Below are positions 20,943 through 24,846 of a stretch of 32,425 bases of DNA, piece by piece. Origin of the DNA: Promethearchaeota archaeon (lineage in GTDB: Archaea; Asgardarchaeota; Lokiarchaeia; Sigyniarchaeales; SOKP01); assembly GCA_004524535.1 (NCBI GenBank), contig SDNY01000033.1:1-32425 (forward strand), in the 5' to 3' direction. The translations under genes and the position numbers were made by a program. Positions within the stretch are counted from its first letter, which is position 1. Each line of letters begins with the position of its first letter. The notes beneath the pieces are model-generated. The model did no database searches. It saw only the letters and a program-made list of their open reading frames with translations, and had not been told where the DNA came from.

Positions 20943-21260
20943 TTAATTATTTACTACATCATCAATCCAGTTTAAGTAATTTTTGGAGCCTTTTTCAATC
21001 TTAAAAGCAATTATTTCTGGAGTCTCATAACTATGAATTTCTTGAATCTTTTGAATTAAAGCATCACTTTTTTCTTCTGTCGTCTTTATTAATAAAATAT
21101 ATTCATTATCTTCCTCTATTTTACCTTTCCATTCGTAAATAGATATGACATTTTGAATTATATTTACGCATGCAGCAAGTTTATTTTCAATTAGAATTTT
21201 GGCAATTTTCTTCCCATCTTCTAATTTATTAACGGTTACTATAAATATATAATACATCAT
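20943..21260 (-). CDS. cutA: Divalent-cation tolerance protein CutA
   Basis: LAACVNI, SIYEWKGKIEEDNE, LIKT, HSYETPEI, YLNW. Confidence 0.95.
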   Translation of the reverse strand: MMYYIFIVTVNKLEDGKKIAKILIENKLAACVNIIQNVISIYEWKGKIEEDNEYILLIKTTEEKSDALIQKIQEIHSYETPEIIAFKIEKGSKNYLNWIDDVVNN

Positions 21261-21489
21261 GTTGTCTCAATTTCTTATTTTTCTTTTTTAAAATAATATT
21301 TAACATAATTTCAATTTTTTTCAGCTTTAAATAATATTTAATTCAGATGACAAATTCACTATATAAAATAAAATTTGATTAGTATTATTATTTAAAAAAG
21401 AAATTAATAAATAATAATTTCAATATTAATAATAAAATTGAATTTGAAATAATTTGAAAAAATTTATTTAATTAGGAGGCTGATGAAAA

Positions 21490-22245
21490 ACGCTTCATAA
21501 TGTTTATCTTATCCACCAGTTGACCGGAATCTGTCTTTTACACCGTAAGTATGGAAGTATTGAGTTTAATCAAGACTTAGTTTCCGGATTTTTGACGGCA
21601 TTAAAAGATTTCAGTGTTGAGTTTTCTAAAGGTAGTGGAGAACTCAAAGTTATAGGTTATAGATAAGTTCTATCTATAAGTAAAGATATGCAAATCTTTT
21701 ATTTAATGCTCGTCTTTAAGGAAGGTGTTCTAATAACTGCGGCTGCGGATAAAAACGACGATAGTAAAATAACTCATAGAGCTTTAAGCGATATCATCGA
21801 TAAGTTTGTTGGATTATATGGAGATCAGATTCAAACTTGGTCTGGCGACGTTCGCATCTTTAAAGATTTCGCTGATGTGATAGATAATGTCTTGGACAAG
21901 GGCAAAGTTGCAGAAATTCAATTGAAAATTCCAATTCTTAAAATATATAAAAAGGATTTTCTCAAATCTCAAGCAAAAATAGCGAAAAAAGGATTAATGC
22001 TATCGGAGGACGATTTAAGAAAAGCAGAAGATAAAAAGCCTGAATGGACAGAGAAAAGGCTTCCAAAGCAGGTTATAACTCAAGGATTTTTGGATAAAAA
22101 GCAATATGAAATTGCACATTTAGCAGATGGCTTTCACACTATAGCAGAAATTGCCGAAGAAGCTGGTACACCACAATCAGAAGTACAATCAATTATCGAT
22201 AGTTTAGATAAACTAGGTTTATTAAAATTTATTGAAATAGCTTAG
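21490..22245 (+). CDS. Longin-like domain + C-terminal winged-helix protein; split gene join(21490..21655,21686..22245), 241 aa
   Basis: The frame of listed ORF 21688 continues upstream as (ACG)LHNVYLIHQLTGICLLHRKYGSIEFNQDLVSGFLTALKDFSVEFSKGSGELKVI, a typical longin N-terminus. It is separated from DMQIFYL by 30 nt containing TAA. AGGAGG at 21474-21479. C-terminal DGFHTIAEIAEEAG..LDKLGLL winged helix. Confidence 0.8.
21656..21685 (+). other. Candidate 30-nt bulge-helix-bulge mRNA intron
   Basis: GTTATAGATAAGTTCTATCTATAAGTAAAG. Perfect 9-bp stem (21657-65/21671-79), 3-nt bulge AGG, 4-bp helix UUAU/GUAA, 3-nt bulge AGA. In-frame TAA at 21664-21666; removal restores V-I-D-M. Confidence 0.65.
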
Positions 22246-22345
22246 AAATATGTTAAATAAATTTTTTTAAGAAATTATCCCCTAATCTCTTTTTTTAATA
22301 TACAATTAAATTTTTGAAATTTAATTAATTAATTTAATCTATAAA

Positions 22346-23818
22346 ATGAATGTAAATAAAATTGAAGAAAACATCTACGAAATTACTCCTAAGGCCTTAA
22401 TGGTTCGATTGCAGGGTAAAATTGAAAGATTTCAAATGAACGTACCTGTACGTATTTATGCTAATGAGTATATTTTAGAAAGAATAAAGCAAGATAGGAC
22501 CTTAGATCAGATAAGTAATGTCGCATGCTTACCAGGAATAAGAAAACATGCGATAGCTCTCTCAGATGCCCATCAAGGTTATGGATTTTGTATTGGTGGA
22601 GTTGCTGGGACAGATGCTGAAACAGGTATGATTTCTCCGGGAGGAGTTGGTTACGATATAAATTGCGGAGTAAGACTTATTCGAACGTCATTAGAAGAAA
22701 AAGATGTTAAAAAAATCATGCCTAATTTATTAGACTCAATTTTTAGAAATATACCTTCTGGATTAGGTTCAAAGGGTAAACTAAATATAAGTTATTCCGA
22801 TTTGGATGATGTTTTAAATAATGGACTGAATTGGGCTTTAGATAAAGGATATGCACTCGAAAATGATCTTAAACATTGTGAAGAAAATGGTTTTTTAATG
22901 GATGCCAATGCTGATATAATATCACAGAAAGCAAAACAAAGGGCAATTAAACAACTTGGTTCTTTAGGTAGTGGAAATCATTTTATTGAAATACAACGAG
23001 TTGACGAGATTTACAACGAAAATATCGCAAAAAAACTTGGTATAATTAAAAAAAACCAAATTGCAGTTATGGTTCATACGGGTAGTAGAGCTTTGGGTCA
23101 TCAAGTTTGTACTGATTCTTTGAGAAACATTGAAAAAGCAATGAAAAATTATCAGATCAGAGTTCCTGATAGAGAACTCGCTTGTGTCCCTGCCAACACT
23201 CCTGAAGCTCAAAATTATTTGAGTCAAATGGCATCTGCTGCAAACTTTGGATTTTGTAACAGACAATTGATTACTCATTGGCTAAGAGAATCGTTTCAAA
23301 ATGTATTTAAAGAAGATCTTGACGCTCTAGATTTAAATTTAATTTATGGAGTTTGCCACAATATCTTAAAAATAGAAGAACATGAAGTTAATGGTGAAAA
23401 AATGATGTTGAATATTCATCGCAAAGGGGCGACTAGAGCGTTCCCTCCAGGTCATCCAGAATTACCTCAAGATTACAAAGAGATTGGACAACCTGCATTA
23501 ATACCTGGGACTATGGGTTCGGCTTCATATTTATGCGTTGGAAAACCAAAAGCAATGGAGCTTTCTTTTGGCTCTACAGCTCACGGTTCAGGCAGAGTGA
23601 TGTCTCGATCAAAAGCTAAGAGAAGTTATTGGGGAAACCAAATAAAAGAAGAATTGAGTAAAAAGGGAATCCTTGTAAAAGCAGCTTCAATTCAAGTTAT
23701 TGCCGAAGAGGCTCCAGGTGCTTATAAAGACATAGATCAAGTCGTTAATGTAAGTCATGAACTTGATATAGTTGAAAAAGTCGTTAGGTTTGTCCCAATT
23801 GGTGTAGTAAAGGGATAA
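22346..23818 (+). CDS. rtcB: RNA-splicing ligase RtcB
   Basis: DAHQGYGFCIGG, GYDINCGVR, GSGNHF, HTGSR, CHN, HRKGATRA, IPGTMG, STAHGSGR, EEAPGAYK. Confidence 0.97.
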   Translation: MNVNKIEENIYEITPKALMVRLQGKIERFQMNVPVRIYANEYILERIKQDRTLDQISNVACLPGIRKHAIALSDAHQGYGFCIGGVAGTDAETGMISPGGVGYDINCGVRLIRTSLEEKDVKKIMPNLLDSIFRNIPSGLGSKGKLNISYSDLDDVLNNGLNWALDKGYALENDLKHCEENGFLMDANADIISQKAKQRAIKQLGSLGSGNHFIEIQRVDEIYNENIAKKLGIIKKNQIAVMVHTGSRALGHQVCTDSLRNIEKAMKNYQIRVPDRELACVPANTPEAQNYLSQMASAANFGFCNRQLITHWLRESFQNVFKEDLDALDLNLIYGVCHNILKIEEHEVNGEKMMLNIHRKGATRAFPPGHPELPQDYKEIGQPALIPGTMGSASYLCVGKPKAMELSFGSTAHGSGRVMSRSKAKRSYWGNQIKEELSKKGILVKAASIQVIAEEAPGAYKDIDQVVNVSHELDIVEKVVRFVPIGVVKG

Positions 23819-23823
23819 CACAA

Positions 23824-24255
23824 TTATATGTCAAAAACAATTTTAATTTTTACTCCTTCTGTGCTCTCCTCTATATTAATAAAAGAATATGTAATTGCCT
23901 TAACTTCGGTCCCAACCTCATGCTTATTTTTATCAAACTCTTCGCCTCTTACAATTGCCTCTAATTCGTATTCGTTATTAATTTTATTAATACTTTCAAT
24001 ATTAATTTCGTTAAATACTAATCCTTCCACGTCAAAAATAAAAAGAAATTCTGAAAGAAAATCAAATAATAAAGCTTCTTTATCTTCAGCTTTAATTTTT
24101 AGACTTTTTTCAACTGTATGGGAAATTTTCTCCAAATTAGAAGTAATAACTGTCATTAAACTCAGAGCACATTGAGAAAACGCTTCTTCTAAGGTTCTAC
24201 CCCAGCTTAGGCTTTGAATGTCTGCGGTGTGATCAAGATATCTAAATCCTTTCAA
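23824..24255 (-). CDS. Archease (RtcB activating cofactor)
   Basis: FRYLDHTADI, LEEAF, LLFDFLSE, GTEVKAITY, C-terminal VFDI. Confidence 0.95.
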   Translation of the reverse strand: MKGFRYLDHTADIQSLSWGRTLEEAFSQCALSLMTVITSNLEKISHTVEKSLKIKAEDKEALLFDFLSEFLFIFDVEGLVFNEINIESINKINNEYELEAIVRGEEFDKNKHEVGTEVKAITYSFINIEESTEGVKIKIVFDI

Positions 24256-24345: not shown

Positions 24346-24846
24346 TTGATTAAAGTGATAGACAATATTTTTCTTTCTCAGAAAATTAGGATTAAAAAGA
24401 AATATACTAATAAAGAACTTAAGCTATACCAATATTTTCACAAGAAGACAAAATTTTATCCTGAATATGTAATAATATTAAATCAATTTATCTTTCTTTT
24501 CGTTAATAACGATATTTACTTCGAAGCCAAGGTACACTTAAATTCTATACGAAAGCAATTAGAAAAGAAAGTCGTAATGATAAGAGCAGAGAATACATTA
24601 ATAAAATTACTGTTTAGTTTTTTTCCGGATCCTTATATTCACGATATAAAAATTGAAATTAACGAAGAAAATGGGAAAAAAATTAAGATTATCACAATTT
24701 ATTTTTTATCATTTGAAGAAAGAGGTATTGCCATCGGAAGGCAGGGAGCATATATTAAGGCTGTCAATGAAATTTTTGAAAAATATATAATCTACGAGAA
24801 AAAAGATCTACCTATAACACTAAAATGTAAATTATTAAATTTATAA
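24346..24846 (+). CDS. Archaeal NusA-like KH-domain protein
   Basis: KKVVMIRAENTLIKLLFSFFP and ERGIAIGRQGAYIK (KH GxxG loop). Confidence 0.7.
   Translation: MIKVIDNIFLSQKIRIKKKYTNKELKLYQYFHKKTKFYPEYVIILNQFIFLFVNNDIYFEAKVHLNSIRKQLEKKVVMIRAENTLIKLLFSFFPDPYIHDIKIEINEENGKKIKIITIYFLSFEERGIAIGRQGAYIKAVNEIFEKYIIYEKKDLPITLKCKLLNL

Follow-up and report, generated by a model that had tools for sequence, protein, structure and literature searches.

A longin and winged-helix protein gene interrupted by a putative bulge-helix-bulge mini-intron beside rtcB and archease in a Lokiarchaeia genome

The archaeal messenger RNAs (mRNAs) described in the accessible literature as carrying introns of the tRNA type, which are recognized as a bulge-helix-bulge (BHB) structure, are that of cbf5 in Crenarchaeota, the pre-mRNA of which is reported to carry such an intron in its coding sequence (Watanabe 2002; Yokobori 2009, PMC2738675), and that of HVO_1309 in Haloferax volcanii, where the intron is located in the 5′ untranslated region (UTR). 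In the 2020 study on the latter, cbf5 is given as the only coding-sequence case besides the UTR example of the study itself, which is a substrate of the endonuclease EndA outside tRNA and rRNA and the removal of which is apparently needed for efficient expression (PMC7714728). Within the accessible literature (subscription journals excluded), no BHB introns in Asgard protein-coding genes and no link between rtcB and a protein combining a longin fold with a winged helix (longin-WH) were found. Here we describe a three-gene locus at positions 21490–24255 of contig SDNY01000033.1 of a Promethearchaeota archaeon (assembly GCA_004524535.1), the window being the whole 32,425 bp of this contig. It consists of a longin-WH gene which is split by a 30 nt insert with the build of a BHB intron, the RNA ligase gene rtcB and the gene for the ligase cofactor archease. 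Overall, the locus is probably best understood as a BHB-interrupted longin-WH gene serving the RtcB-archease system, with the intron being one of a population of such introns and not the explanation of the gene order.

The intron resembles that reported for cbf5 in being of the tRNA type with a BHB within a coding sequence, in its presumed removal by an endonuclease and a ligase, and in its patchy gains and losses (PMC2738675). It differs in its host gene, in its lineage (Asgard, Lokiarchaeia) and in its minimal size of 29–30 nt, comprising one hairpin and the central helix; moreover, no fewer than 10 such introns interrupt coding sequences of the same genome and, unlike cbf5, its host gene is a conserved neighbor of the ligase gene. 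The HVO_1309 intron is described as being 46 nt in length and situated in the UTR, whereas the intron of the window disrupts the coding sequence through a stop codon, and the very existence of the protein would hinge on splicing. A more distant likeness is found in the splicing of XBP1/HAC1 initiated by IRE1, for which joining by RtcB and archease is reported in mammals (PMC4282640). The two cases would have in common a short mRNA intron in the message of a transcription factor (a putative one here), no spliceosome, a structure-guided endonuclease cut and joining by RtcB and archease, with only the spliced message giving the active protein. However, the endonuclease acting here would be the constitutive EndA and not a stress sensor, there is no switch of frame to a new C-terminus, and most longin-WH orthologues are intron-less; the likeness is one of logic and parts list and not of homology, with regulation being hypothetical at the present locus.

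Bacterial rtcBA is regulated by RtcR, a sigma-54 activator with a CARF domain. The window shares with this system a ligase gene adjacent to that of its cofactor, a known operon theme (PMC4604427), together with a putative dedicated regulator gene as neighbor. Unlike RtcR, this neighbor encodes a longin and winged-helix protein, which is unrelated and of putative function. The N-terminal fold predicted for it is the same as that of longin and roadblock proteins of Asgard archaea and eukaryotes (PDB 9jue, Roadblock3 of Prometheoarchaeum; 1ifq, Sec22b; 2vx8, VAMP7; 8adl and 9o5a, NPRL2/3), but it is fused to a probable C-terminal winged helix-turn-helix and its gene is fixed beside rtcB and archease.

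The window was found to be one contig (C101) of a 3.66 Mb metagenome-derived genome of 198 contigs (G000) with a G+C content of ~30% and a completeness of 99%. The longin-WH gene (21490–22245, plus strand) appears in it as two open reading frames (ORFs) of the same frame, 21487–21666 and 21667–22245, the sole separator of which is an in-frame TAA at 21664–21666 that lies within the intron. A search with the read-through translation identified 406 homologous proteins, of which the best 120 were listed; all of these are continuous, 226–245 amino acids in length and 72–91% identical over the whole length, and are named in their sources as hypothetical proteins of Lokiarchaeia or Promethearchaeota. 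In an alignment with 12 intact homologues (231–245 amino acids) the window was observed to have exactly 10 extra codons, situated between the invariant ...ELKVI and DMQ..., and thus an insert at 21656–21685 (plus strand) with no counterpart in over 100 homologues. Outside the insert the protein is 95% identical to the best aligned intact homologue and has no other lesion. The two exons on the plus strand, 21490–21655 and 21686–22245 (the latter ending in the stop codon TAG), as delimited on the basis of (i) the homologue alignment, (ii) the BHB cut site, and (iii) a structure model, give 723 nt or 241 codons, which is the most frequent length among the homologues.

The insert and its flanks can be folded into a central helix of 4 bp, in which TTAT, closing exon 1 (21650–21653), is base-paired to GTAA in the last part of the intron (21680–21683), and an inner hairpin with a perfect stem of 9 bp (21657–21665 with 21671–21679) and a loop of 5 nt (21666–21670). 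In the mechanism proposed, this pairing would form in the longin-WH pre-mRNA, and the hairpin beside the central helix would leave two bulges of 3 nt, at 21654–21656 and 21684–21686. EndA would cut after the second base of each, that is after 21655 and after 21685, and RtcB with archease would then join the exons. Joining 21655 to 21686 gives GTT ATA GAT ATG, which restores V-I-D-M as found in all 12 aligned homologues. The data show an insert of this structure which is conserved and covaries, and genes for the enzymes; splicing by EndA and RtcB is inferred.

A survey of relatives was carried out across 160 genomes of the class, in 135 of which the longin-WH gene is present. The DNA was examined for every genome whose longin-WH match held stops or was split; for the remainder, the intron was scored as absent where the match was continuous and as long as expected, with a few sites (e.g., that of G133) lying past the end of a contig. 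An insert at exactly the site of the window was found in 18 of the 135 genomes, these being the genome of the window and 17 others from four other genera. The insert is 30 nt long in 16 of the genomes and 29 nt long in two (G043 and G146), where it puts the downstream exon in another frame, so that the protein can be made only if the insert is taken out of the RNA. When the 18 sequences were aligned, 93.1% of cells were paired under the BHB model and six hairpin pairs were seen to have undergone compensatory double changes (19 cells). The covariation score was reached by none of 500 shuffles, and sliding the partner by 1–3 columns reduced pairing to 34–53%. The central helix was paired in all 18 sequences (100% of cells). 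The motif (G/A)TTATAG was present at the exon end in 18 of 18 intron-bearing alleles vs. 3 of 41 intron-less ones, a difference to which kinship may contribute. As judged from these comparisons, the support for a real intron is threefold, namely exact restoration of the frame, recurrence at the same site and covariation.

A number of observations weigh against this interpretation or limit it. The strict hBHBh′ form is absent, as the outer exon-exon helix comprises only one G-U or G-C pair, and the motif therefore appears to be of the relaxed kind, which would need an EndA of broad specificity. The local fold is no more stable than that of shuffled sequences (z = 0.44). Matches to the strict BHB-hairpin pattern number 5233 across the genome of the window, and a BHB-like structure alone carries no statistical weight at such a low G+C content. 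Two metatranscriptome contig sets (5% of sampled words) leave 21652–21735 uncovered and are uninformative on splicing; the contigs that could be placed on 21400–23900 have the sequence of relatives over parts of exon 1, exon 2 and rtcB, and none contains a spliced junction. The closest relatives of the same genus (G048 and G050), with which the window groups at 98% support, are intron-less. A gene tree of 54 rows recovered the genera but requires a minimum of 10 gains or losses to account for the presence of the intron; its sample is biased, comprising the 30 best matches, every interrupted gene and a small number of others. It follows that the intron is dispensable. Its patchy distribution would reflect recurrent loss or else recurrent gain at a single site.

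A longin-WH paralogue of 39% identity in another genome (L079, on G033:C83) has a stop-containing insert of 30 nt at the codon position occupied in the window, which would indicate that the intron is old or that the site is favored for insertion. The idea of a mobile element was discarded, as the 30 nt insert has no second copy in the genome even when up to four mismatches are allowed.

Genome-wide scanning for BHB motifs also counts against a special status of such structures, as there was no excess of matches bridging ORFs (403 vs. 456 in the control in a first scan, and 59 vs. 55–70 in displaced controls in a second). On account of this lack of statistical excess, candidates were judged by the continuity of Pfam families across the flanking ORFs, and 13 candidates were tested in this way because several of the matches had G+C-rich helices. 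Nine of the 13 were supported, indicating at least nine other genes with introns of 29–32 nt and of the same build; being derived from a narrow scan, this number is a lower bound. The same family with adjoining profile coordinates was found on both sides of the junction for CdhD (7–135 and 138–227), RNA polymerase A′ (Rpb1 domain 1, 34–73 and 74–153), EF-2 (GTP_EFTU, 2–35 and 49–187) and uS8 (ribosomal S8, 2–41 and ...126). Consecutive domains of one protein lie across the junction in Elp3 and in CdhC (ACS beta) with its C-terminal domain, while in uL11, a DeoC-type aldolase and CdhA the family is cut off at the junction. The BHB central-helix strands in these nine genes start, the sign giving the strand, at C8:-3092, C17:-344, C129:-9466, C188:-33825, C188:+169, C98:-11152, C32:+3634, C16:+3511 and C100:-12039 of the genome. 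The other four candidates (on C40, C121, C190 and C138) had no Pfam support, and one in the S12 gene on C72 had been dropped by eye before the Pfam analysis as conserved residues seem to be encoded within what would be its intron. Filtering by G+C content in a second census contributed no more than additional candidates.

Introns of this kind were also identified elsewhere in the locus among the relatives. Although rtcB of the window is uninterrupted, in five relatives it is split after GGVGY at codon 103 by a canonical BHB intron of 29 nt, which shifts the frame and has a helix of 4 bp, a hairpin of 9 bp and bulges cut after the second base (L001:2762–2790 in G048, L002 in G050, L047 in G043, L074 in G119 and L075 in G144). 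Within the longin-WH gene, the region around codon 13 is a further site of introns, occupied in ten relatives. Six of these (L037, L038, L039, L041, L042 and L046) have an insert of 30 nt (type A), for which RNAalifold gave an exon-exon helix of 7 bp and an inner helix of 10–11 bp, consistent with the full hBHBh′ motif. For the insert of ~33 nt in the other four (type B; L040, L043, L044 and L045, in G142, G139, G140 and G127) no BHB fit was found by hand.

Two EndA paralogues above the Pfam cut-off (PF01974) are encoded in the genome of the window, on G000:C100 (31106–31336) and G000:C84 (30615–30863). They fit a two-subunit enzyme of broad specificity, likely of the alpha-beta type, and an enzyme of this description is reported for most Asgard genomes in a 2026 preprint on their tRNA introns (10.64898/2026.10.13.758758). 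Despite a completeness of 99%, ARAGORN predicted no more than 12 tRNA genes for the genome, of which eight have introns (one call being implausibly long), which suggests that most of its tRNA genes are too interrupted to be recognized.

The window intron is consequently one of at least 10 in the protein-coding genes of its genome and is not peculiar to the longin-WH gene. To the cases described in cbf5 and in the Haloferax UTR, a genome of the Loki type thus adds the neighbor of a ligase gene and at least nine other genes. In such genomes gene callers will split or truncate genes with mini-introns, and core machinery would require EndA and RtcB for its expression. It would also mean that interruptions of protein-coding genes are routinely tolerated in the archaea most closely related to eukaryotes, a point of relevance to ideas on the origin of intron-rich genomes.

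The other members of the module were readily assigned. The ligase gene rtcB (22346–23818, plus strand) encodes a 3′-phosphate/5′-OH RNA ligase matching Pfam RtcB (PF01139) over positions 1–426 of 426 of the profile (561 bits, E = 2.6e-168), and NCBIfam RtcB families also match. The gene for archease, the activation cofactor of RtcB (23824–24255, minus strand), matches PF01951 over positions 1–136 of 136 (147 bits, E = 5.2e-43). The longin-WH gene is separated from rtcB by 100 nt (22246–22345) and rtcB from the convergent archease gene by 5 nt (23819–23823). These coordinates agree with the layout given in a preliminary description of this DNA, which had a split gene co-oriented with rtcB 100 nt before it and archease converging with a 5 nt gap, and which had also assigned the split gene to a longin and winged-helix protein.

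This assignment was borne out for the longin part by structure prediction, with the winged helix being probable. An AlphaFold model was obtained for the 95%-identical intact homologue P0002 from an alignment of 25 rows (mean pLDDT 79.9). As predicted, residues 6–107 have the order strand-strand-helix-strand-strand-strand-helix, which is that of the longin fold, although this is a prediction and not a solved structure. Helices follow beyond residue 107, and the C-terminus (195–242) is predicted as helix-helix-helix-strand. Exon 1 would encode strands 1–3 and helix 1 of the longin fold and exon 2 the remainder of that fold, followed by a linker of helices and, at the C-terminus, the probable winged helix-turn-helix; the intron falls between strands 3 and 4 of the longin sheet. 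Foldseek matched the model to the AP sigma subunits and to the longin domains of Sec22b and VAMP7 (E = 1.7e-5 to 5e-4, TM score 0.6–0.7 on the target), to Ragulator and roadblock proteins, including one of Prometheoarchaeum, and, over the full length, to NPRL2/3-like chains. No longin, roadblock or other Pfam family matched exon 1 or the N-terminal half, and NCBIfam gave no match there either. The winged helix is weakly indicated by helix-turn-helix matches below curated cut-offs (residues 149–188 of the exon 2 ORF; HTH_47 at 22.3 bits against 27.1, MarR_2 at 22.2 against 27, and TrmB at 20.0 against 25.6), and the NCBIfam search gave no helix-turn-helix match. A PDB MarR chain matched weakly (E = 0.12), and the TrmB-family domain PF01978 is precomputed for five of the 120 listed homologues. 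The gene product is probably a protein of 241 residues which combines a longin fold with a winged helix. When 301 genomes of the phylum were sampled with a profile of the family, 260 had matches, eight of these matches being in the genome of the window alone; outside Lokiarchaeia they mostly cover the N-terminal 140 residues in ORFs of ~210 amino acids.

The longin-WH gene and rtcB lie within 5 kb of each other in 111 of the 135 genomes. In 91 of these rtcB is co-oriented and directly downstream at less than 1 kb (gap 88–833 nt, median 160 nt), in ten it is co-oriented and downstream at 1–5 kb, and in ten it is head-to-head with the gene at less than 1 kb. In the remaining genomes rtcB is 99 kb from the gene (one genome), on another contig (15 genomes) or not among the matches listed (eight genomes; 13 matches were unlisted). 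The head-to-head arrangement is that of the most distant lineages, at 45–62% identity, in which archease follows the longin-WH gene on the same strand or converges on it. Distances of 2–4.6 kb between the longin-WH gene and rtcB, in place of the usual ~150 nt, were noted in G142:C58, G140:C7, G092:C94, G133:C8, G114:C25, G116:C18, G144:C2 and G117:C24. The trio appears from these comparisons to be an old module, conserved across Lokiarchaeia, and its conserved place beside rtcB suggests that the longin-WH protein serves the ligation system. Conservation of the linkage in relatives, on which the preliminary description had made its proposal depend, was thus found; an accompanying correlation of intron presence with linkage was not, as linkage within 5 kb is seen in 16 of the 19 genomes whose longin-WH gene is interrupted one or more times and in 95 of the 116 where it is not. 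The lack of correlation is explained by the linkage being near-universal.

The spacer ahead of rtcB (22246–22345, plus strand) contains oligo-T runs and a conserved promoter-proximal element, ATTTTTGAAA, at 22310–22319. In many relatives from two genera (spacers of L004–L046) a 20 nt element, ATTTTTGAAAAYTGTTTTAY, is located ~20–40 nt before the ATG of rtcB and is far better conserved than the rest of the spacer; the copy in the window has diverged, with the block at 22310–22319 belonging to it. In three of the five genomes searched, the 20 nt element without mismatches occurs upstream of rtcB only, and a search of the same five genomes for a regulon gave two-mismatch matches barely above the reversed control. 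The element may be a core promoter, an operator or both, and it would argue for rtcB having its own promoter. Against a regulatory role it must be noted that it may be nothing beyond a core promoter. A scan for bacterial promoters and terminators found 11 sites vs. 13.6 expected, which is not meaningful for an archaeon.

The most likely role of the longin-WH protein, which we put forward tentatively and at somewhat less than even chances, is that of a transcription regulator acting at this conserved promoter region. In this respect the trio is a concrete candidate for the control of an RNA ligase in archaea. As the main alternative, the intron would be real but the protein may be a partner of RtcB or archease (an adaptor, a localizer or a sensor of nucleotide state) and not a DNA-binding regulator. 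Longin domains usually act through protein contacts, and the best structural matches are to proteins which act in complexes (AP sigma, Sec22b, VAMP7, Ragulator and the NPRL2/3-like proteins of SEA/GATOR1); in addition, the helix-turn-helix signals are all sub-threshold, and in distant lineages the gene directly precedes archease on the same strand, as is expected of one operon. However, the gene is head-to-head with rtcB in ten genomes, a pairing typical of a regulator and its target, and both the TrmB-family domain in five homologues and the palindromic-looking conserved element before rtcB speak for DNA binding; a partner role is considered rather unlikely. The presence of the intron would make production of the protein depend on ligase activity, as the preliminary description had correctly recognized in stating that the full-length protein needs both endonuclease and ligase: the intron is of the tRNA type and contains an in-frame TAA. 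That description had gone further in proposing a possible feedback circuit, in which the protein could report RNA ligation capacity and regulate, or be co-regulated with, rtcB through its winged helix. In an extended form of this idea, the intron would be kept so that the regulator reports the capacity for cutting and joining, giving homeostatic or bistable control of rtcB with a logic like that of IRE1 and XBP1/HAC1. It can be said for this that splicing is required for the full-length protein, also with the frame-shifting 29 nt versions of two relatives; that the gene is tightly linked to rtcB and archease; that ten relatives have introns at two further sites in the gene and five have rtcB itself split; and that the splicing load of the genome seems very high, given at least nine other split genes and 12 recognizable tRNA genes at 99% completeness. 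The gene also has a weak start codon in many genomes, and such codons are common in autoregulated genes. Yet 116 of the 135 genomes are intron-less in the gene and the linkage is kept in them all the same, the nearest relatives are without the intron, mini-introns of the same kind in at least nine unrelated housekeeping genes mean that no special selection is needed here, and regulation of rtcB by the longin-WH protein is itself only inferred. The intron is therefore unlikely to be a dedicated reporter of splicing capacity; dependence on the ligase is a by-product that could act as feedback, and feedback does not explain the gene order or the linkage. It is equally doubtful that the longin-WH protein is a dedicated controller of RtcB and archease with its output tied to the cutting and joining capacity through introns at three sites and the intron of rtcB itself. 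If this were true, it would represent an archaeal forerunner of the IRE1-XBP1/HAC1-RtcB logic, operating where tRNAs and at least nine core protein genes need that capacity for their expression. An unspliced message might then also give two half-proteins with a different activity, of 58 and 185 amino acids, the longer one beginning at the invariant Met that directly follows the intron.

Two further explanations dispense with splicing altogether. The insert could represent damage or an artifact (a decaying pseudogene, a fold-back duplication or an assembly error) with no full-length protein being made, as might be suspected from the stop codon, from a hairpin which partly repeats the adjoining exon letters, from an assembly of 198 metagenomic contigs and from closest relatives which lack the insert. 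This is very unlikely in view of the 17 other genomes from four other genera which are occupied at the same site by different sequences with compensatory changes, of exons which are 95% identical to intact homologues without other lesions, of a geometry which agrees with BHB cut sites to the base, and of nine other genes, including those of RNA polymerase and EF-2, which are split alike in a genome of 99% completeness. Alternatively, ribosomes could bypass or read through the 30 nt by translational hopping with the RNA remaining unspliced, since a stop codon within a hairpin right after the last codons of exon 1 resembles known bypass sites, of which that in phage T4 gene 60 is one. However, no matching take-off and landing codons would give the conserved I-D-M junction, the conserved helix of 4 bp and the fixed bulges of 3 nt have no role in bypassing while being exactly what EndA requires, and the same architecture recurs at unrelated sites with other sequences; this explanation is accordingly given hardly any credence.

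A probable start of the longin-WH gene was also identified. A Shine-Dalgarno-like AGGAGG, as read from the sequence, is situated at 21474–21479 (plus strand), with GGAGG or GAGGTG at the same place in relatives, and ten bases after it lies the probable near-cognate start codon ACG (21490–21492, plus strand). There is one in-frame codon between an upstream TGA and this ACG, and the first canonical start in the frame is a TTG at 21520. The only ATG behind the Shine-Dalgarno site, at 21483, opens a mini-ORF of five codons in another frame (21483–21500). At 51 loci the codon before the conserved L-H-N was found to be TTG (15), ATT (13), ATG (8), GTG (5), ATC (3), ACG (3), ATA (2) or GTT (2), so that ATT, ATC, ATA, ACG or GTT occupies the start position in 23 of the 51. 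A weak start codon seems from these loci to be a trait of the longin-WH family. A frameshift at the start, caused by one A too many in the run of A that follows the ATG at 21483, was considered and rejected: two other genera share the AAAACGCTNCAT context together with the ACG, and near-cognate codons are frequent here.

On either side of the module, at 20943–21260 (minus strand) and 24346–24846 (plus strand), are a CutA1 gene (Pfam, 126 bits) and a gene for a small protein with sub-threshold KH-domain matches.

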